A program made the translations under genes and the position numbers. The notes beneath the pieces were generated by a model. That model had not been told where the DNA came from. It searched no databases and saw nothing but the letters and a program-made list of their open reading frames with translations. Positions 1,416-11,927 of a DNA stretch of 22,011 nt are shown one piece after another. The stretch comes from Promethearchaeota archaeon (lineage in GTDB: Archaea; Asgardarchaeota; Lokiarchaeia; Sigyniarchaeales; SOKP01): the NCBI GenBank assembly GCA_008080735.1, contig SHMW01000019.1, positions 33,624-55,634 of the forward strand, written 5' to 3'. Numbering within the stretch: the first letter of the stretch is position 1; the number at the start of each line of letters is the position of its first letter.

Positions 1416-2720
1416 TTAATCTGCGCTTGGGATTTTGTGTAAATTTCGTTTGTTTTTAGTTTTTGGCTTCTCTTCCTTATTCTGTGATGATTCCGTATTT
1501 GGGTTTTCTTTTATTTTTTCAGAACCCTTTTGGAGGATTTCGACAGCATCAATCGTCTCATTTTTTTGATTAAAATATAAACGGAATAAATGAGTATCTA
1601 ATACAATTATCTCTTTTGGGACCTTTTCCACTAAGTTCCAGTCCGTTTCAATTTGTTCCTCTCCGAATACTTCTACTTTCTTTGAAATCGCACCATATAA
1701 CTTATGACCAACAATCAAATTTTCTCTCCTATAACCTTCGGGGATTTCTACATTCAAGATCTTATCAAAAATAGTTCCTCCCTCATCTGGCAAGTTAATT
1801 GTACTTTTTTCCATTTTGGAGGGGGTGCTGCTACCTTCTGATTTTAATATTTCAATACCTTCCACCATCCCGGCATCCTTATCCAAGTATATTCTAAAAA
1901 TATAATTTTTTAAGGAGTAAATCCCGTCAGGAAGTTTGGAGATTCTTTCCCATTCTTGCTCCTCAATATCTTCTCCAAACACATTGGTTATTTTTGAGAT
2001 GGCTCCGTATAGAGTTTTTCCTACAAGTAAGTTTTGTATACCATAATTTTCTGGAAGATCTTGTTCTAAGATTTTTTCAATGATTTGTTTAGCGTCAAGG
2101 TGTTTCTTACTCTTTGCTCTCGAACTTGAACGTCCTCTAGGAGGGCTATAAGGTTTTTTAGCTCTACTGACTGAAGCTGATGTTGAGGAAGGTGAACCAG
2201 TAGGTTTTTCAATCTCTGCGGAAATATCAACACCTTTTCTTTTGAGCTCTTCTAGAGCGGGTGAATAATATTCTTCCTCTTTTTCTGATTCGCTCCCAGT
2301 GTCCTCGACCACTTTTCCTTTTGGTCTAGTGGTATCTTTTTCAATGTTCCGAATATACCTCATATCTTGAGGTCGTTCTTTTACCTCCATTGATTCTAAA
2401 TTGAACGTACTTAAAAACTCAACTGGTTCATCTCCTTGATCCACTGATACAATTTTACAGCGATGAAATGCTGCTTCTTTCTGAAGCTCCTCTTGAAGAG
2501 AACTAGCTACCCGAGAACTGATAAATCGTTTTCTCACAGGTGATTTTACACCCTTCCATATGAAGATTCTGCGTACATCTTCCTTTACGATAACGAATAC
2601 TTGTTCGGGAGCAAGAATAGATTGTAAATCGCTCTCATCTACATCAATCCTCTGTTTTTCTCCGCTGTCGAGAAGCTCGAATACCATAAAAAAATCGTAT
2701 TCTTCGTTAAGATCTGACAT
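1416..2720 (-). CDS. Gelsolin-homology-domain protein (Asgard-type) with two copies of an uncharacterised ~81-aa C-terminal domain
   Basis: The N-terminal ~100 aa match the gelsolin repeat pattern (VFVI...IFIWKG.KS...K...S...A..L...KIVSVDQGDEPVEFLSTF). An MRYI motif and a Ser/Pro/Lys-rich linker follow, then a clear internal duplication. Start placed at ATG 2720 rather than TTG 2732. Confidence 0.8.
   Translation of the reverse strand: MSDLNEEYDFFMVFELLDSGEKQRIDVDESDLQSILAPEQVFVIVKEDVRRIFIWKGVKSPVRKRFISSRVASSLQEELQKEAAFHRCKIVSVDQGDEPVEFLSTFNLESMEVKERPQDMRYIRNIEKDTTRPKGKVVEDTGSESEKEEEYYSPALEELKRKGVDISAEIEKPTGSPSSTSASVSRAKKPYSPPRGRSSSRAKSKKHLDAKQIIEKILEQDLPENYGIQNLLVGKTLYGAISKITNVFGEDIEEQEWERISKLPDGIYSLKNYIFRIYLDKDAGMVEGIEILKSEGSSTPSKMEKSTINLPDEGGTIFDKILNVEIPEGYRRENLIVGHKLYGAISKKVEVFGEEQIETDWNLVEKVPKEIIVLDTHLFRLYFNQKNETIDAVEILQKGSEKIKENPNTESSQNKEEKPKTKNKRNLHKIPSAD
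1530..2084 (-). repeat. Intragenic domain duplication in the gelsolin protein (aa 217-297 = nt 2084-1842; aa 321-401 = nt 1772-1530)
   Basis: Ungapped hand alignment gives 34/81 identical residues, including LYGAISK, VFGE, W, FRxY and EIL. Confidence 0.9.
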
Positions 2721-2891
2721 TTTTCCGATCAATCACAGAATGGTTGTTTAGCAAAAATTATTTGTTTATTATTATTTTTATAAAACTTATGCTTTTTATT
2801 ATTATTCTTTTAGCAAGAATATCTTATTTGAAATCAAAAAAAAAATTATATTGCAAAATATCACAAATATCTATAATTGTTTTTATCCCAA

Positions 2892-3584
2892 TTAATTTGT
2901 GTCATGCAATACATTGTCTATACTAAGCACGAATCCAAGCAATATTCTCCGGTCTGTTTCATTATCCAAAATTTTAAGTGCATACGTGTCTTTAAAATCT
3001 AATAACCCATCAAGGAATACATCTCTCCACCTATCAGCTTTTTCCACTTCAGCAACAATCTTACCCGAACTCAAATCTTTAATTTTATAACTCCACCCCA
3101 TGAACTTACCCTGTGCTTCATACCATCTCTGACCGTCTGGTCCTTCCAAATAAAATTTTGGTCTAAAAAAGGACAGAATCTTTTTCTTTATTCGGGCAAT
3201 CATATTTTCTTGAGGATCCTTTAAGTCTTGAGCCCCTCGGGCAGAAATTAATTTAGCATGAATGGTTGCTGCGATGGTTCCATCGACTTCTTGTAATTCC
3301 ACCTTTTTTCGTATACTGAATATTTTTCTATGCATCCGCCCGATTACTTTATTGTCTTGATCGAGGATTTCTCCGCTCCCCCAATCCCAATATCCTTCCT
3401 TTAAGATATAATAATTTCTATTAAGATCAAAAAGACCTCCATCTGAATGATAAGGAAGCTCTTGATTGGATTGAGCCACTTTTTGTTGAGGTTGAGCTTT
3501 TTCTCTTTTTAAAGATCCCCCACAATGCTCACAAAAATTTTGCCCTTCATCTATTACTTCTTCTCCACAATTAGGACAATACAT
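2892..3584 (-). CDS. Zinc-ribbon + LURP-one-related/scramblase (tubby C-terminal-like beta-barrel) protein
   Basis: N-terminal CPNC-x11-CEHC zinc ribbon. Repeated 'I.D..g..ig.i.kK.fs' beta units (EILDQDNKVIGRMHRKIFS; ARIKKKILSFF; AQGKFMGWSYKI). C-terminal DTYAL...DRRILLGFVLSID hydrophobic helix typical of the LOR/YxjI/scramblase fold. Confidence 0.8.
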   Translation of the reverse strand: MYCPNCGEEVIDEGQNFCEHCGGSLKREKAQPQQKVAQSNQELPYHSDGGLFDLNRNYYILKEGYWDWGSGEILDQDNKVIGRMHRKIFSIRKKVELQEVDGTIAATIHAKLISARGAQDLKDPQENMIARIKKKILSFFRPKFYLEGPDGQRWYEAQGKFMGWSYKIKDLSSGKIVAEVEKADRWRDVFLDGLLDFKDTYALKILDNETDRRILLGFVLSIDNVLHDTN

Positions 3585-3717
3585 CTCTTTAATTCACTTT
3601 CCATTTAAGTTGATTATATTTTTGAATATTCTTTTAATAAGATATGAAAAATATTCTAATAAAAACCTTTCAAATCAATTGAGAAATTTTTAAATTTTGG
3701 AATGTATAAGTATTAAT

Positions 3718-4506
3718 ATGTCATTAGGAGAAAGATTAATTGATTTACTTAAGTTAAAGGATTATATCACCATCACAGGCACTTCATTAGGATTACTTGC
3801 GCTGATTTTTGCCAGTATTGGAGGTCGAGCCGGCATTTCTTGGGGCTTCTTTTTTATAGCATTTACAGTTGCCACAGATTTACTCGATGGATATATCGCT
3901 CGCAAAACTAATACGGTAAATGAAATCGGTATTCAATTAGATTCATTAAATGATTCCCTCACATTTGGGATTGCTCCTGCAGTACTCACATTTCTTGCAT
4001 TTAGAACGGGTGAATTATACGACATTTTTTTAATTATTGGAAGCATTATTTTCACATTAGGAGGTATCTTGAGACTAGCGCGCTTTAATATTTCTAAATC
4101 AGAAGGATATACTGGAATCCCAACTCCGATGAGTGGATTAATACTCTTGAATTTTTTTTACGGGAATTATTTTTATGCTGTATTTGAATCTGGTGGAGGA
4201 GCAGCTGCAATTGCATATCCGTTTCCTTCCCTCTCGATTTATATCATTCCATTTCTTATGATTTTCATAGGTTGGACGAATATTACAACATATATCAAGT
4301 TTGGAAAAAAAGGGAAAAAGGTATATATTTTATTCTTGGTATTTGCCCCACTTTGTCCTATATTCGGAATTATTGGAATTCTTAATCCTACGCCCATAGT
4401 TGGATTGAGTGTAAGTATTGTTTTTTTCGTATTTGTTAGTCTTTTAGTCGGTTATATATTTTTTGGACTTTTTAGGACATTAATAAAGAAAATTAGGAGT
4501 GACTAA
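3718..4506 (+). CDS. pssA: CDP-alcohol phosphatidyltransferase, type II phosphatidylserine/archaetidylserine synthase-like
   Basis: Signature DLLDGYIARKTNTVNEIGIQLDSLND (DxxDGxxAR...GxxxDxxxD), plus the PssA-type motifs FGIAPA and LRLARFN...GIPTP. Multi-pass membrane protein. ATG 3718 preferred over TTG 3697. Confidence 0.8.
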   Translation: MSLGERLIDLLKLKDYITITGTSLGLLALIFASIGGRAGISWGFFFIAFTVATDLLDGYIARKTNTVNEIGIQLDSLNDSLTFGIAPAVLTFLAFRTGELYDIFLIIGSIIFTLGGILRLARFNISKSEGYTGIPTPMSGLILLNFFYGNYFYAVFESGGGAAAIAYPFPSLSIYIIPFLMIFIGWTNITTYIKFGKKGKKVYILFLVFAPLCPIFGIIGILNPTPIVGLSVSIVFFVFVSLLVGYIFFGLFRTLIKKIRSD

Positions 4507-4593
4507 ATTACGAATTTTTCGATTAAAAAATCACTCTCAAAAAATCATTATTTATATAAACATAACTAAGAAAAAAGTTGCCTCCTCAATTGA

Positions 4594-6591
4594 TTAGAAT
4601 AGTCTATTCTTCCATTCCTCTATTTTATTGAATATTTGTTCCTTTTCTCCTCCACTTAACACTCCTCTCGCATTTTTATAATCATTAATCGTTCTTCTCA
4701 GATCATGAAGAGTTACAGAAAAACCACGTTTTTCTAAAATTAAATCGGCGATTTTTTCTAATGATTGAGCAAAAGTTTGCCCCGTAAGCTCGTTTAATTT
4801 TTTTAATAATGAGTTAAAGGCAGTATTTATCTCCATGCCAACGGAATCGTCAGGCTTAGGTGTAATTTTCGACTTAAAATCTTGGGCTATCCCTAATCCT
4901 GAGACCTGCGGCTTTTTTTCTTTTTTCATTTTTTCTCTGTCGTTTTTTTCTATGGACGTCTTTAATTCATTCCCTATTTTTTCTGAGAGTTTTTCCTCGC
5001 CCTTGGGTTTTGTTTCTATGGTCTCCAGCTTTTTAGACCTTTCTAAGTCTGTCTGTCTAAGGTTTGGACGACTTTGTTGTGTATGAGATTGTGTATATTG
5101 CTTAGTTTTAGTTGGAGTGGGTGCTGGTGTGGGGCTGGATCTCATTGGTTTTTTAGGAACACCCCCATAATCAGGTTCTGCAGCAGACCATACATTATAT
5201 AAAGCCTTCTGAAAGAGTTTAACCAATTTAGAATTATTAATTCCAATTCCAGTAAAGTTATCTAAAATATCTTCTGGGTCTTGATCAATAAATCCCATAA
5301 AAAGCAAATCCTCGTCGGATTTGAGTCCTATAAAGTTTTTATTTTCATAATTTCGAAATTCCAAATTTTCAATACTTTTTAACTTCATAACTTTACTATT
5401 TACATGAGGATCCGAACTAGCTATTCGTATTCTAAGATTTTTGGGAAGATCTTCTAATAAATCGTTAGATAAATAATCTTTAAGATTTGGAATGATAATA
5501 ATTAATTCTGACGTGGAATTATGGATTGCATTTATAATATGCTCGTTTATAAGAGTAGTAGATTTTATTTTCCAAATATATTCATTTTTTAAGTCTTCTG
5601 TTTTTAGCGCAATCTGCCTATAATTTGACAAGGCTCTCAGAATAGGCTGATTAAGATTTGCTATTTGATCAACAGAATTGCTAATGATTATATTTAGTTT
5701 ACTAAGAATCGTATTTTTCAAAGATTCAATGTTCGGGTCTAAATTATCTTTTTTTTCTTTAATTGATTCACCCAAACGTTTCATTTTCATCTCAAAGCTC
5801 GAAAGAAGATTTAAGAGTAACATTTTAAAATCATTTCTTTGTTGAATTGATGCATTCAGTATTGGTTTTAAAGAAACTTGGTCAAATTCTCTTTCGATTA
5901 AACTTGTCACCCTATTGGTGAAATCTCCCACCGTTTTGTCTACTTTTGCATCAAATACTTCTTCTACAGCCTCAATGACTACTTCTTCTCTCTTTTTAAG
6001 ATTTAGGTCTTGTATTTTACTAATAATGTCTTTCCTCAACTGCCCAATAATTTTTACTAAATTTCCGAATTCAGTTTGAGTAATACCCATGATTCTTTTT
6101 TGGAGTTCCGATACTTCTGTCTCAATATCTTTGATGTTATCCATCTCTTTGGCTATATCTTCAGCATCTTTCTTCTGCAATAGACTATCTTCATCAAAAT
6201 CTTTTTTAATGTCTTTAAAATCATTATAAATACTATCTAACTCTAATTTATTTTCATTTTGAAAGATCTCACCGACAGATTTTACTATAAGGTTCTGAAT
6301 AGCGTTTTTAATATCAGAAAAGCTACTTTCAATATTACTATAATAATTCAATATAGGAGTTATCGGAGGAACCGCATAATATGACTTTAATTTCTTTTTA
6401 TTCTCAGTTTCAAGTGTTATAATGAGTTTATGTTCATTTAATTCTTCCAAAGTATCATTAAAAGTGTTATTTTCAATCTCGGGAAGAATTGCTTTCAATT
6501 CATAATATGTATGTGGTATATCTCCTAATACTTTTAAGTAAATATTTATCGCATTTTCGCTTAAACCTAATTTTTTAAGAAATTCTTTCAT
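4594..6591 (-). CDS. TrmB-like winged-helix + long coiled-coil + degenerate PLD-like domain + C-terminal helical domain protein
   Basis: N-terminus LKKLGLSENAINIYLKVL...YYAVPP matches the TrmB wHTH. aa ~80-335 are amphipathic helical. aa ~338-470 (IWKI...INAIHNSTSELIIIIP...IRIAS...EFR...W) resemble the PLD-like/effector domain of TrmB. A low-complexity linker and an ~80-aa helical C-terminus follow. Confidence 0.65.
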   Translation of the reverse strand: MKEFLKKLGLSENAINIYLKVLGDIPHTYYELKAILPEIENNTFNDTLEELNEHKLIITLETENKKKLKSYYAVPPITPILNYYSNIESSFSDIKNAIQNLIVKSVGEIFQNENKLELDSIYNDFKDIKKDFDEDSLLQKKDAEDIAKEMDNIKDIETEVSELQKRIMGITQTEFGNLVKIIGQLRKDIISKIQDLNLKKREEVVIEAVEEVFDAKVDKTVGDFTNRVTSLIEREFDQVSLKPILNASIQQRNDFKMLLLNLLSSFEMKMKRLGESIKEKKDNLDPNIESLKNTILSKLNIIISNSVDQIANLNQPILRALSNYRQIALKTEDLKNEYIWKIKSTTLINEHIINAIHNSTSELIIIIPNLKDYLSNDLLEDLPKNLRIRIASSDPHVNSKVMKLKSIENLEFRNYENKNFIGLKSDEDLLFMGFIDQDPEDILDNFTGIGINNSKLVKLFQKALYNVWSAAEPDYGGVPKKPMRSSPTPAPTPTKTKQYTQSHTQQSRPNLRQTDLERSKKLETIETKPKGEEKLSEKIGNELKTSIEKNDREKMKKEKKPQVSGLGIAQDFKSKITPKPDDSVGMEINTAFNSLLKKLNELTGQTFAQSLEKIADLILEKRGFSVTLHDLRRTINDYKNARGVLSGGEKEQIFNKIEEWKNRLF

Positions 6592-6743
6592 TCTGGATCC
6601 CTAATCTACAAAATTCTCTCAAATATATAAAAAAACATTATTTAAATATAGAAAAATACACTATTAATCTTTTTGGATAGAAAAAAACATTTAATTACAT
6701 TCTTATTTATTTTAATTAGTAATTGGAAAAATGGGATTGAGAT

Positions 6744-8153
6744 TTGTCGGTAAAAAAAATTGAAGAAGTCATATTCTATCTTGACCTAACCAAAAATTAT
6801 GTAAAAAAAAAGGATTTACTCAAATTATTCGAAAATTATATAGAAAAAAGAAAGGAAGTCAATAGAAACGGAAAATTTGGACTCCTTCTTTTTGATAATG
6901 AGGATTCTCCTATTTTTACCAGTCAAAAAAATAGTTCAATGGAGATAAACAAAATCATTGATGAAAGCTGGGAATCACGTTCAATTAGAAAATCCTTTTT
7001 TGAAAAAGGATTATTTTATATCCTTTCTTATATAACTGAAAGTATTAGGAAGCGTCCAAAAGCATATAGGATTATTATTCTTTCAGATACACCAAGCGGT
7101 CTTTCAGAAGATTACCAAAAATCGCTCTTTGATTTAGTCTCCAAGGTTAAATATTTCCCTACATTTATAGATATTATTAGATTATCGAAAGAAAAAAAGC
7201 GATTTTTTGATGATGAGGTTAAACTAAACATTCTGGTGTCGGATACAAAAGGAGGGATCTTTTATGTAAAAGATAAAAAAGAATTAACCGCAACCTTCAA
7301 TAAATTGATCAATCCTAAAGACCTGGTAAATACTTTTAGACATAAACCAGATCAGATTGAAATTTCGAACGAAGATTTAATGTTCTATAGCAATCTGGCT
7401 AAAACCTTAAAAGAGCCTTTAAATAAGGAAAATCTTGTTTGTTATTTATGCGATAACGAAATTTGCCCTGTGTGTGCTGATGTATATGATATCCCTATGA
7501 AATGCACAGATTGTGGAACAGCATTTCATAGTTGTTGCGTTTTAGATTATTCAATTGATAATAATATTGGAATTCCCTTTATTTTCAGATGTCCAAAGTG
7601 TGGAAGGCTATTAAAACTTCAAAAAGAAGTTATAAGAATGCATAATAAAGGGATAAATCAAGAGGATCAGATAACTGAGAAAGATTCTCCGAAAAAAATG
7701 CAACAAAAAGTTAATCTAGATAGAGTCAAACCCCCAGAACCCTTGGAGTTTAAAAAATGGGAAAGAGGGAGTCAAGACCGAATAATAGATGAGAAGGATG
7801 AAAGAAATGCTAAATATATACGAATTGGGGGTTTTTTTGGAAAAACTTATAAAGTTATAGAAAAAGAAGGTAAAATAGTTTATGAAAAATCAATAAAGCC
7901 CTCCAAATCTAATAATAACCATTCGGCATCAGAAAGCCATTTTGACCATCCTAAAACTGGAAATATCTCTTCAAATGCAAGTTTGAAAAATCCTACCAAA
8001 CCAAATCAAACAAGATATTGGAAACCGAATCTTGAGAGTAATATTATCCAAACAAAAACCAATAATAGAAAAAAATTAAAACTTTGTCCTATTTGCGGCA
8101 AATCACTCCCAAATGGAGTAGATCGCTGTTTATATTGTGGTAGTAAAATATAG
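6744..8153 (+). CDS. vWA domain + Cys-rich PHD/RING-like zinc finger + C-terminal zinc ribbon protein (paralog A)
   Basis: vWA strand pattern VIFYLD, FGLLLF, RIIILSD, IDIIRL, TKGGIFY. Zinc region C233-C286 (nt 7440-7601). C-terminal CPIC-x10-CLYC. TTG start. Confidence 0.75.
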   Translation: MSVKKIEEVIFYLDLTKNYVKKKDLLKLFENYIEKRKEVNRNGKFGLLLFDNEDSPIFTSQKNSSMEINKIIDESWESRSIRKSFFEKGLFYILSYITESIRKRPKAYRIIILSDTPSGLSEDYQKSLFDLVSKVKYFPTFIDIIRLSKEKKRFFDDEVKLNILVSDTKGGIFYVKDKKELTATFNKLINPKDLVNTFRHKPDQIEISNEDLMFYSNLAKTLKEPLNKENLVCYLCDNEICPVCADVYDIPMKCTDCGTAFHSCCVLDYSIDNNIGIPFIFRCPKCGRLLKLQKEVIRMHNKGINQEDQITEKDSPKKMQQKVNLDRVKPPEPLEFKKWERGSQDRIIDEKDERNAKYIRIGGFFGKTYKVIEKEGKIVYEKSIKPSKSNNNHSASESHFDHPKTGNISSNASLKNPTKPNQTRYWKPNLESNIIQTKTNNRKKLKLCPICGKSLPNGVDRCLYCGSKI

Positions 8154-8288
8154 ATTACAACTAGGATACATATAATTGAAGTTTCGATTTGATTAAAAAT
8201 AAATAAGAAATCTATTTTATTAGTTTTAGATTAGTTTCTTAAAATAGATGGAATTTAGAATTTTTAATAACAGGTAAAATCATATCTC

Positions 8289-9560
8289 ATGAATTTTAAT
8301 AATAATAAGTTATCCCAGTCTGAAGAAATCATTTTCTATTTGGATCTTTCTACTGATTTTTTAAAGAGAAAAACCTTGGTTAAAGCATTAGATGATTTTA
8401 TTGAAAATAAAAATGATTTATTTAAAAATATTTCTTATGGATTAGTTTTATTTAAGAAAGCAAAAGAGATCTTTAGTTTATATGACAAAAATGCGGAACG
8501 GATTATAGATACAATTGAAGATATTTGGGATGAGCGAGAGGAGCATGTGAGTTATTTTGAAAATGGATTGTATGAAATCCTTGCTCATATCTTTAAAGTA
8601 AGCAGAAACAATCCTAAAAAATATCAAGTTATAGTGTTATCTGATTCTGTTAGTCATCTGTCAGACGAATACCATACAGCACTCTATAATTTAATTTTGA
8701 AAGCTAAAAACTTCACTACTACAATAAATGTGATTCGATTAGGAGAAGATAAATTTTATGAGGATGATGTTAAGTTAAAGGTAATTACAAGCGAAACTTT
8801 TGGAGCTACATTTTATTGTGATAATAGAAAAAACCTTGATACTTATCTAAATTCACTACTCAAAACCCAAGAAAAAATAAATGTCCTAAAGAGCGAATCC
8901 CAAAAAGTATTAGATGATGATTATACCTTTTACGAAAAATTGGCTACAGATCTAATTTCTCTTTCTTCAGAAGATGAAATTATTTGTATTTTATGCGAAC
9001 AGGAGTTATGCCCGATATGTGAGACCCATAGTGATGAGCTTCATAAATGTTATAATTGCGATGCTCCTTTTCATAGCTGTTGTGCTGCTGAATATTCGAT
9101 TTCAAATCAAATTGGCTTTCCTAATATATTTAGGTGTCCGCGCTGTGGAGCTCTTTTAAAATTGGATAAAAATTTTGTAGACACCATTTTATCAGAAAAA
9201 TCAGAACAAGAAGAAATTGATTCAGAACAGAAAGAAAATGTTCTAGAACAATATATTTCCAATGAAGATTTCAAAGAAGATATAACAGATGATGGAAACA
9301 TTCCGTTGCGACCCCCGAGTAAAAAAAAGGTAAAAGTTGGAGGTTTTTTCGGTACAGAAATAGAGATTAATTCCAATGGGTCCTCAAATAATAAAAGTAA
9401 TCGTGGATTTGCAAAAAATCAGCATAATGATGAGAAAGTGTCAATAAGTTCTCTAAGACCCCCAAGATCTAAGAGCTCTCTAAAGTTGTGTCCTATTTGT
9501 GGAGCAACTGTAAAAGGTTCTGTTTTCTGTCCTATTTGTGGTTCTAAAATTGAGAAATAA
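8289..9560 (+). CDS. vWA domain + Cys-rich PHD/RING-like zinc finger + C-terminal zinc ribbon protein (paralog B)
   Basis: Collinear paralog of 6744-8153: IIFYLD, YGLVLF, VIVLSD, INVIRL. Identical Cys/His spacing (nt 8985-9146). GGFFG motif and a C-terminal CPIC...CPIC. Confidence 0.75.
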   Translation: MNFNNNKLSQSEEIIFYLDLSTDFLKRKTLVKALDDFIENKNDLFKNISYGLVLFKKAKEIFSLYDKNAERIIDTIEDIWDEREEHVSYFENGLYEILAHIFKVSRNNPKKYQVIVLSDSVSHLSDEYHTALYNLILKAKNFTTTINVIRLGEDKFYEDDVKLKVITSETFGATFYCDNRKNLDTYLNSLLKTQEKINVLKSESQKVLDDDYTFYEKLATDLISLSSEDEIICILCEQELCPICETHSDELHKCYNCDAPFHSCCAAEYSISNQIGFPNIFRCPRCGALLKLDKNFVDTILSEKSEQEEIDSEQKENVLEQYISNEDFKEDITDDGNIPLRPPSKKKVKVGGFFGTEIEINSNGSSNNKSNRGFAKNQHNDEKVSISSLRPPRSKSSLKLCPICGATVKGSVFCPICGSKIEK

Positions 9561-9697: not shown

Positions 9698-11104
9698 ATG
9701 GATTTTACTTTAACCGAGAAACAAAAAGAATTGCAACAGAAAGCTCGTGAATTTGCTGTTGAGGAAGTTTTACCAGTCGCAAGAAGTTATGATGAAAAGA
9801 ATACTATGGCAATGGATGTTATTAAAAGGGCATGGGAAGAAGATTTATTGAATCTGGGAATACCAAAAGAATATGGCGGTCCTGGCTATGGATTAGTTGA
9901 ATCAATCATAGTCGTAGAAGAAATAGCCGCTGCCTGTCCAGGAATAGCCACTAGTATTTTTGATAATAATCTTGGTGCTGAGCCAATAATACTTGGCGGA
10001 AATGATGAGCAAAAGGAACGTATTTTAAAAGAGTTAGTTGATGAATTCAAACTAATTTCTTTTGCTACATCAGAGCCTGGAATGGGTTCAGATGTTGCTG
10101 GAATGCAATGTCGAGCGGAAAAAGATGGGGATGACTTTATTCTTAATGGTTCAAAGTATTGGATAACGAATGCTGGGTATGCAGATTATATTTCAGTTTT
10201 CGCGACAGTGGATCCAGAGAAACGGCATAAAGGGATCTGTGCCTTTATAGTTCCAAAAGATACTGAAGGGCTTCGAACCGGAGCACATATTCCGAAATTA
10301 GGGCAAAGAGCATCAAATACTTGTTCTGTGATATTAAATGATGTCAGAGTTCCTAAAAAAAATGTACTAGCAAAACCAGGATATGGGTTTGTTTTAGCAA
10401 TGCAAACATTTGCGAATACTCGACCAGCAATCGGAGCTTTTGCTGTAGGATGTGCACGCTCCGCGATGGAATATTCGATTGATTATGCAAAAGAGCGAGA
10501 AGCTTTTGGAAGAACTATTGATCATTATCAAGCAATTCAATTTAAAATTGCCGAAATGTATAAAAATATCGAAGCTGCAAGGTTGTTAACTTATAGAGCA
10601 GCTTGGGAAGCAGATCAAGGAATCGATAATAACATAAGTTCGGCATGTGCTAAGGCATTTGCATCAGACGTCGCGATGGAGGTGACTACTGAAGCAATTC
10701 AAATTTTTGGTGGCTATGGATATATAAAGACATACCCTGTTGAAAAATTGTTCAGAGATGCAAAATTATTCCAGATTTATGAAGGAACTTCGGAGATTCA
10801 AAGAATTGTTATTTCTCGACATGCCATGAAAAAATATCAACATGGAATGCCTAATCTCTATGATCTTCCCTCAAGGGAAATTTCAGAGGAACAAGATATT
10901 TCTGAGGTCTCGAAGGAGGAAATAACCAAAACAGCAGAAGAGCTTGGAGGAAAATATAGATGTTCTGTATGTGGTTATGTTTATGACCCAGTCAAAGGAG
11001 ACCCTGACGGGGGAATTGAACCCGGTACACCCTTTGAAGAAATCCCTGATAGGTGGGTTTGTCCCGTATGTGGAGCAGCTAAATCGCAGTTTAACAAAAT
11101 CTAA
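9698..11104 (+). CDS. Acyl-CoA dehydrogenase with C-terminal rubredoxin domain
   Basis: ACAD motifs [35 protein letters not shown] and catalytic [11 protein letters not shown]-terminal [32 protein letters not shown] is a canonical rubredoxin (nt 10952-11101). GAGGA SD-like motif at 9687-9691. Confidence 0.95.
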
Positions 11105-11324: not shown

Positions 11325-11927
11325 ATGTCGTTAAAACCAAAATTAATTTTAGAGAATTTCAATTCTGGGAAAATATCTAAGGAATTTGCGATAAAGACAT
11401 TAATTTTCCTAATTATTGAGTCTAAAAATGATTTAGTCAGATTTGATTCAATTGAGATATTAGGTACTATCGGGTCTAATCATAAATCTTTATTTCTTTT
11501 ATTTGAAGTCATTCTTATTTCTGACTCTAATGAGAAGATTAGAATTGCCGCATTCAATATTCTAAAGAAATGCTTTCCCATAAAAGCAATTAAACCAATA
11601 TCACATGCTATCGAATGGGAAAATGGAGACTTATTGATCTTTTTAATTGAATTCTTAGAGGAGATAAGATTTCCTAAAAGACGAGAACTTTTAATTAAGA
11701 AAATCAAAACATTGAATAAACGATATTTGAATTTTATAGTAATGGACGCAAATTTGGGAAATCTTCGTTATACTGAGCTGAAAGAAATTATATTAAATTA
11801 TCTCATGTATATGTCGTTTGAGTCTCTCTATTTTCACCGGCACAAAATTCCTTTAGCACTAGATTTTTATGATTTTAACTTTATCTCTAATAAGAAAATA
11901 TTTAGCAAATTTGAAAACATAGAATAA
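11325..11927 (+). CDS. HEAT/ARM-repeat-like hypothetical protein
   Basis: HEAT-like units SKNDLVRFDSIEILGTIG and ISDSNEKIRIAAFNIL...AIKPISHAI. Confidence 0.6.
   Translation: MSLKPKLILENFNSGKISKEFAIKTLIFLIIESKNDLVRFDSIEILGTIGSNHKSLFLLFEVILISDSNEKIRIAAFNILKKCFPIKAIKPISHAIEWENGDLLIFLIEFLEEIRFPKRRELLIKKIKTLNKRYLNFIVMDANLGNLRYTELKEIILNYLMYMSFESLYFHRHKIPLALDFYDFNFISNKKIFSKFENIE

Follow-up and report, generated by a model that had tools for sequence, protein, structure and literature searches.

Introduction

No archaeal relatives that would bear on the origin of p44 and p34, core subunits of TFIIH, or on that of the Rpn10-type von Willebrand factor A (vWA) domain, were found described in the literature searched. 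Two adjacent genes in the Promethearchaeota archaeon genome GCA_008080735.1 (Lokiarchaeia, order Sigyniarchaeales) raise the question of whether such relatives exist and of what they might do. The genes, here termed A and B, lie in a stretch of 22,011 nucleotides of contig SHMW01000019.1 (hereafter the window) and encode proteins in which a vWA domain is followed by a cysteine-rich finger, a tail and a C-terminal zinc ribbon. A sequence-only reading of the window had likened them to the p44/p34 (Ssl1/Tfb4) pair of TFIIH. Here, we report that A and B are genuine paralogs, two subunit-type proteins of one vWA-RING finger superfamily, and that this superfamily is found in one Lokiarchaeial order only among the genomes sampled. 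Their kinship with Tfb4/p34, p44 and Rpn10 is remote and of superfamily level, and is not orthology.

The family is present in multiple copies, and a vWA profile pooled over its members reaches p44, p34 and Rpn10 ahead of all other solved vWA domains, so that the family can serve as a tractable archaeal model of adaptors combining a vWA with a RING. The tandem pair may also be regarded as a natural experiment in which a homomer splits into charge-complementary paralogs. The importance of these genes is tempered in that the family was found in a single order only, the pair arose by local duplication and the function is one that we infer.

Results

A tandem pair of paralogous genes

6744-8153, + strand: gene A, an open reading frame (ORF) of 469 aa with a TTG start, basic; domain order vWA, RING-type finger, tail, zinc ribbon
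8154-8288, no strand: A-B spacer, 135 bp, AT-rich
8289-9560, + strand: gene B, an ORF of 423 aa, acidic; the conserved core copy

The two co-oriented paralogs that had been called from the letters alone are found exactly at these positions, and their products share 31% identity across 463 aa (BLASTP, E 2e-78). For B, 407 homologues were found. The arrangement is stable, with A upstream of B on one strand in all 26 tandem loci checked and spacers of 115-580 bp (median about 150) between them. The charge difference that had been noted qualitatively is borne out by isoelectric points of 9.2 for A and 5.2 for B, and the split is kept across the 26 tandem loci. It is pronounced in the vWA domain, where the net charge has a median of +5 in A-type genes (range 2 to 9, 26 genes) and of -2 in B-type genes (range -9 to 2, 28 genes), the single-copy genes having a median of +2 (range 0 to 4). 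The linker and tail are likewise more acidic in B, and 15 of the 19 sites with fixed A/B differences are within the vWA.

The vWA domain and its modified face

6762-7322, + strand: vWA of A, with the degenerate metal ion-dependent adhesion site (MIDAS) motif DLTKN and a positive net charge; aligned to the vWA of B
8322-8882, + strand: vWA of B, with the degenerate MIDAS motif DLSTD and a conserved modified MIDAS face (D19, E91-N92-G93, D119-x-P121-S122)

A Pfam scan of A and B did not detect the vWA directly, the C-terminal ribbon being the sole domain matched. The assignment of a vWA (Rossmann-like alpha/beta) fold to both proteins is based on modelling and holds because the Pfam vWA model PF00092 is matched by 22 of 36 B-type homologues, because the AlphaFold2 (AF2) model of B is confident, with a predicted local distance difference test score (pLDDT) of about 90 over residues 10-195, and because residues 7-205 of this model match 50 vWA structures in VIA with Z 14.5-19.1. 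The order of these matches (ArnB 19.1, p44 18.3, Ssl1 18.1, Rpn10 17.6, a bacterial vWA 17.1 and p34 16.8) cannot discriminate among vWA relatives, since the spread of Z is too narrow.

A degenerate MIDAS had been proposed for both proteins, and DLTKN in A and DLSTD in B are indeed read at the MIDAS positions of a fold that the model backs. The canonical DxSxS...T...D pattern is found in neither protein, and seven residues are deleted after the motif; the first MIDAS Asp and the beta4-loop Asp (D119) are retained in both. Since D19, E91-N92-G93, D119-x-P121-S122 and the DDVKL motif (159-163) are kept in A and B types alike, their conservation suggests that the modified MIDAS face forms a conserved binding site.

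A cross-brace finger on the RING/PHD border

7383-7412, + strand: flanking helix of A, FYxxLAxxL, on the N-terminal side of the finger; seen by conservation and as a helix in the model
7440-7601, + strand: finger array of A, C233-C286, a regular-expression match; C4HC3 cross-brace plus an extra CxxC and a CC doublet
8928-8957, + strand: flanking helix of B, FYxxLAxxL; seen by conservation and as a helix in the model
8985-9146, + strand: finger of B, C233-C286; RING/PHD-type cross-brace with a probable third zinc site

The ligand array C233-x2-C-x4-C-x2-C-x9-C-x2-C-x4-H-x-C-C-x17-C-x2-C286 is identical in A and B down to the residue numbers, as the sequence-only reading had it. Its ligands show little or no variation among 36 B-type homologues and among 59 genes of the A, B and single-copy types, and both proteins fit the eight-ligand C4HC3 spacing C-x2-C-x9-C-x2-C-x4-H-x2-C-x17-C-x2-C. 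In the helix that precedes the finger, five residues (F214, Y215, L218, A219 and L222) are kept in 93% or more of the A, B and single-copy genes.

When folded alone from a 47-sequence alignment, the finger gave a domain model with pLDDT 88.9 and a predicted TM score of 0.80. Nearly all of its 50 best VIA neighbours were RING, U-box or PHD fingers, led by the C4HC3 RINGs of FANCL (Z 6.2 and 6.0, the best over 62 residues) and Listerin (5.8 and 5.6) and followed by matches to APC11 (5.3), Nse1 (5.0) and Slx1; the C-terminal fingers of p44 and Ssl1 reached Z 4.5 and 4.2. Foldseek with the finger alone returned nothing below E 1e-3. The best matches of its sequence profile were the PHD of MTF2 (E 2e-4), Nse1, Doa10, the PHD of JARID1D and the C1 domain of RAF (E 0.009). 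Since structural neighbours and profile matches are both of RING/PHD type, the finger is best described, on the strength of the model, as a cross-brace on the RING/PHD border, and the cross-brace C4HC3 character that had been ascribed to the zinc region finds support in the agreement of domain model and VIA neighbours.

Positions that make contacts in RING-like fingers are kept: the first pair of ligands reads C-P-[IV]-C and the last reads R-C-P-x-C, and Y269 stands in place of the Trp of the paralogs. Only the A/B clade has the additional N-terminal CxxC and the CC doublet, the finger of outgroup paralogs being of the simple C4HC3 type with eight ligands. These extra Cys residues (C233, C236 and C264) and D249, the latter kept in no fewer than 93% of members, probably make up a third zinc site, as far as conservation can tell.

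Tail motif and C-terminal ribbon

7827-7841, + strand: GGFFG tail motif of A, seen by conservation
8085-8138, + strand: C-terminal zinc ribbon of A, CxxC-x10-CxxC
9339-9353, + strand: GGFFG tail motif of B, a predicted beta-hairpin inside the tail
9489-9539, + strand: C-terminal zinc ribbon of B (Zn_ribbon_3, E 1.3e-7); C401, C404, C414 and C417 invariant

Both proteins had been said to end in a disordered tail and a zinc ribbon. The tail, which is acidic, has low confidence in the AF2 model of B (pLDDT below 50 at residues 309-346 and 360-394), and CxxC-x(9-10)-CxxC is present in A and B. Two conserved motifs within the tail had escaped that reading. GGFFG is conserved in both types, with G351, G352, F354 and G355 invariant in the B family, and strands are modelled around it in B at 346-350 and 356-360, with low confidence. 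An I-x2-L-x-PP motif ahead of the ribbon is established for the B family only. All descriptive statements of the earlier reading thus hold.

Other members of the superfamily

L001:1462-2664 (G000:C107), + strand: C107 paralog, 400 aa
L002:673-1851 (G000:C96), - strand: C96 paralog, 392 aa
L030:8534-9655 = G000:C20:32797-33636, - strand: C20 paralog, about 375 aa, a third paralog type

Genome-wide, the Pfam Ssl1 model recognised C107 (42.9 bits) and C96 (36.6 bits), both above the curated cut-off. The two are 33% identical to each other and combine an intact DxSxS MIDAS with a C4HC3 finger and then a second, Prok-RING_1/zf-RING_2 finger. Their C4HC3 finger ends in RCPxCxxLLK, as in A and B, and a comparison of B with the C107 protein gives E 5e-9 across vWA plus finger. 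Unlike A and B, they have neither the extra CxxC nor the CC doublet, and the second RING takes the place of the tail and ribbon. The intact MIDAS and a DyxPxRL signature, which C107 and C96 have in common with Rpn10 and p44, are lost in A and B. Their order-level distribution is the same as that of A and B. As to their neighbours, an Arf/RagA-like GTPase gene lies next to one of the two genes in divergent orientation, and a Roadblock/LC7 gene comes after the other.

In the C20 type, which is conserved in families f1 and f4, the vWA lacks even the first Asp of the MIDAS, the finger is a plain C4HC3 and a zinc ribbon stands at the C terminus. The C20 type bridges A/B and C107/C96 in sequence, its vWA aligning with that of A/B at a probability of 99.8% and E 1.9e-27 in a profile-profile comparison (hhalign). 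Degradation of the MIDAS is stepwise, from C107/C96 through A/B to C20.

The vWA-finger-ribbon arrangement also occupies the first 440 or so residues of longer proteins (P0193, P0208 and P0226, of about 1,100 aa, and those of G009:C74 and G015:C175), where it is followed by some 650 residues that have no Pfam match. Another protein, P0215 (519 aa), joins an N-terminal patatin-like phospholipase to a C-terminal vWA that is related to the vWA of A (E 3e-11).

Kinship with p44, p34 and Rpn10

With full-length B as query, Foldseek placed Tfb4/p34 and Ssl1/p44 chains first (E 1e-10 to 1e-8 over 300-370 columns, root mean square deviation (rmsd) 11-21 Å). Against p44/Ssl1 the values were E 9e-10 to 3e-9 at rmsd 17-21 Å, so that an overall likeness of fold is present; the high rmsd (11-21 Å) implies a domain arrangement that differs from that of the TFIIH subunits. 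A vWA profile pooled from the A/B, C20, C107 and C96 types found Tfb4 (4.8e-6), S5a (5.8e-6), p44 (3.1e-5) and BABAM1 (4.6e-5) in the PDB, with integrin-type domains above 0.1 and extracellular and bacterial vWA ranking behind the eukaryotic group. The C107 protein on its own reached Rpn10 (E 1.3e-5) and human p44 (E 1.4e-5), and a DxSxSM...DyxPxRL signature is common to all three. In the ESM Atlas the Asgard paralog clusters were followed by eukaryotic p44 clusters (0.86-0.88) and Tfb4 (0.82), values which, being below 0.9, serve as leads only.

A profile made from the A/B vWA only, which served as the control, gave nothing significant against the PDB, with Rpn10 at 0.36. The full-length B-family profile likewise found nothing significant among PDB sequences, and a C20-only profile matched BABAM1 alone (E 0.013). 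Pfam Ssl1 (PF04056) had no match on A or B at E ≤ 10 in a search of their own genome, nor any in an hmmscan of A, B and 36 homologues; Tfb4 (PF03850) left both unmatched and scored C107 alone, at 21.3 bits and below its cut-off, and C1_4 (PF07975) had nothing genome-wide but one spurious match at E 1.96. Since the A/B-only profile and the Pfam models fail, the kinship with p44, p34 and Rpn10, though real for the superfamily, is for A and B transitive only, by way of their paralogs.

The suggestion that A and B might be relatives of p44/p34 therefore survives in part. Foldseek, VIA and the pooled profile place the vWA nearest to these proteins, but neither the A/B-only profile nor the Ssl1, Tfb4 and C1_4 models do, and within the same genome C107 and C96 are the better p44-like genes. 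Nothing that had been named beforehand as speaking against the sequence-only reading, that is, a vWA grouping with unrelated prokaryotic families, a zinc region lacking cross-brace topology and no A:B interaction, has come to light.

Distribution, duplication and loss of A

At a search threshold of E ≤ 1e-30, B-type genes turned up in 58 of the 61 genomes from family f1 and in three of the four from its sister family f2, and nowhere in a sample of 186 further genomes of the phylum. A finger profile specific to the family, which covers all paralog types, was positive in 51/51 f1 and 4/4 f2 genomes, with 2-10 copies in each, and in 0/145 genomes of 23 other families of the phylum; relatives occur also in family f4 of the same order. 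A wider, Asgard-level distribution was rejected: the source names 'Hodarchaeota' and 'Thorarchaeota' met among the homologues found no confirmation in these genome searches.

The tandem pair is present in most f1 genomes, and a single gene in genus g8, in most of genus g5 and in family f2; the closed 4.4-Mb genome G026 carries the single-copy form. In a quick maximum-likelihood tree, the A and B clades (SH-aLRT 88 and 99, respectively) have mirrored internal branching, and the single-copy genes of g8 and f2 group weakly with B (support 81). In G006, the closest relative, all that is left of A is about 30 N-terminal residues and the stretch 254-382; the vWA is missing and an in-frame stop codon is present:

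L081:2573-3034 (G006:C118), - strand: A remnant, between an intact B and the TrmB-like gene described below; retains an N-terminal stub, the latter half of the finger and some of the tail

In G001, G004 and G005, the TrmB-like neighbour adjoins B directly, and no trace of A is left. These observations show that B is the ancestral gene, which is always retained, and that A is a dispensable duplicate limited to one family that turned basic and was lost or decayed several times.

Discussion

A predicted vWA-RING adaptor

We give roughly an even chance to the prediction that A and B are cytosolic vWA-RING adaptors, possibly E3-like, in which A is a facultative partner of B. In such an adaptor the vWA face would dock a client or partner, and the RING-type finger would recruit an E2 encoded in the genome, in an E3-like role, or else a partner subunit. 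The tail hairpin and ribbon could clamp the vWA of the partner, in cis or in trans. B would act as a homomer where it is alone, and A would join it as a facultative, charge-complementary partner or modulator. We infer both an A:B heteromer and E3 activity.

Several known systems resemble parts of this architecture. TFIIH p44 and p34 are, like A and B, cytosolic vWA proteins that lack a working MIDAS and continue into zinc modules; A and B differ in having a C4HC3 finger with an extra site directly after the vWA, and their GGFFG tail and ribbon have no counterpart there. The E3 RINGs of FANCL, Listerin, Nse1 and Slx1 and the three-zinc RING-H2 of APC11/Rbx are alike in ligand spacing, in the predicted cross-brace and in the CP[IV]C and CPxC motifs, whereas the A/B finger has an added N-terminal CxxC and CC doublet and is fused to a vWA. 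Rpn10/S5a and BABAM1 (MERIT40) are intracellular vWA proteins of ubiquitin-linked complexes, from which A and B differ by their zinc finger and by having no proteasome or deubiquitinase context. No ubiquitin-interacting motif was found in A or B with Pfam at E ≤ 1, these motifs being short and easily missed.

Among archaeal proteins, ArnB, a regulator of the Sulfolobus archaellum, is a cytosolic vWA protein and the top VIA match (8s05_B, rmsd 2.6 Å over 168 residues). ArnB has no RING-type finger and no significant sequence similarity to A and B, and A and B have neither an FHA partner nor a kinase or phosphatase context. The ArnA-ArnB system also involves a zinc ribbon, which according to PMC6509490 and PMC12852372 is on the partner ArnA. 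The reconstitution of a functional E1/E2/RING cascade from Caldiarchaeum subterraneum (PMC5654768) shows that archaeal RINGs can act as E3s; there, as here, a RING-type finger occurs in a genome with E2s. The Caldiarchaeum RING is small and stands in an operon with Ub, E1, E2 and Rpn11, whereas A and B are large, multidomain and unlinked to such genes. A likeness to Sec23/24 was considered in view of trunk-like vWA matches (Z 15.3-16.4) and was rejected, as a finger follows the vWA and there is no barrel, helical or gelsolin domain. In the literature on Asgard vWA/RING proteins, Ssl1, TFIIH/p44 and Rpn10 we found no paper describing the A/B family.

A number of points weigh against an E3-like adaptor. 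The finger cannot be assigned to RING over PHD, and its best sequence match is a PHD; its Z scores are all at or below 6.2, as expected for a small domain. The residue that follows the last Cys is not basic, so that the 'linchpin' of RING E3s is missing. The A/B-only profile has no significant match to any solved vWA, as described above. No ubiquitin, E1, E2 or deubiquitinase genes are near the locus, the two bona fide E2s of the genome (contigs C118 and C21), together with two XPD-like helicases, being all on other contigs. The conserved neighbourhood of TrmB-like, lipid and gelsolin genes may indicate a function outside ubiquitin signalling, and any heteromer is not essential, because A has been lost repeatedly.

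Less likely alternatives: an obligate heterodimer, a ubiquitin-unrelated role or a sister lineage

Intracellular vWA paralogs often heterodimerise, as in p44/p34, Sec23/24, Ku70/80 and INTS13/14, and several such proteins are among the fold matches of B. A and B could accordingly be an obligate, interlocked heterodimer like TFIIH p44/p34, whose two vWA domains and zinc modules would hold on to each other and jointly regulate a helicase or other enzyme. The rank of Tfb4/p34 and Ssl1/p44 chains in Foldseek, the conserved tandem order and opposite charges, and the two XPD-like helicases of the genome are in keeping with it. We regard it as rather unlikely: the decay of A in G006 and its absence from G001, G004, G005 and other lineages, while B persists, argue against an obligate heterodimer, single-copy genomes exist in g8 and f2, the Ssl1, Tfb4 and C1_4 models fail on A and B, the Foldseek rmsd reflects another domain arrangement, and the locus has no linkage to XPD or XPB.

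A role outside ubiquitin signalling, in which the finger would read a peptide or lipid headgroup in the manner of a PHD or C1 domain, is suggested in the first place by the neighbourhood of the genes.

4594-6591, - strand: TrmB-like winged helix-turn-helix/coiled-coil gene, divergent from A; weak TrmB match, E 0.002

This gene belongs to a six-gene block (window positions 1416-9560) that comprises, in order, a gelsolin-domain gene, a LOR-fold gene, a CDP-alcohol phosphatidyltransferase gene, the divergent TrmB-like gene and the vWA-finger gene or genes. The block is kept in 10/10 f1 loci with both flanks variable, single members being missing from some. The TrmB-like gene is adjacent and divergent in nine of these ten loci and two genes off in the tenth, and stays near the vWA-finger gene whether or not A is present. 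The proteins might thus work with the TrmB-like protein, the CDP-alcohol phosphatidyltransferase and the LOR-fold and gelsolin genes, basic A binding an anionic surface such as nucleic acid or a phosphatidylserine-type lipid. The leading PHD match of the finger profile, the RAF C1 match and the fusion of an A-vWA relative to a patatin-like phospholipase in P0215 are further points in favour. However, f2 and f4 have not kept the block, which may therefore be an inherited gene order and not a functional linkage, and C1 or FYVE structures are absent from the 50 best structural matches of the finger, which are RING-type E3 and related fingers. On balance we consider a ubiquitin-unrelated role unlikely.

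It is quite improbable, in our estimate, that the superfamily as a whole is an archaeal sister lineage of Rpn10, p44, p34 and BABAM1 which acts in mixed vWA-finger complexes with RING-dependent ubiquitin-ligase activity. C107 and C96 would then be p44-like double-finger forms, and A, B and C20 p34-like forms with a single finger and a ribbon. If this were true, A and B would mean that a paralog heteromer in the style of p44/p34 had evolved a second time, independently.

That A and B are the direct precursors (orthologues) of eukaryotic p44 and p34 is hardly credible despite the remote similarity in Foldseek, the ESM Atlas and the pooled profile, given a finger limited to f1 and f2 among the families profiled and a DxSxSM...DyxPxRL signature that is lost in A/B and kept in C107/C96, and they cannot be the p44/p34 ancestor pair, because the A/B duplication lies within one family of one order.

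Other genes of the window

Two genes downstream of the pair may be mentioned.

9698-11104, + strand: acyl-CoA dehydrogenase with a C-terminal rubredoxin fusion, directly 3' of B
11325-11927, + strand: 200-aa protein with weak HEAT-repeat matches

The acyl-CoA dehydrogenase-rubredoxin gene has the same position in two other f1 loci, and homologues of the 200-aa protein are encoded directly 3' of B in two other genera (L021 and L022).

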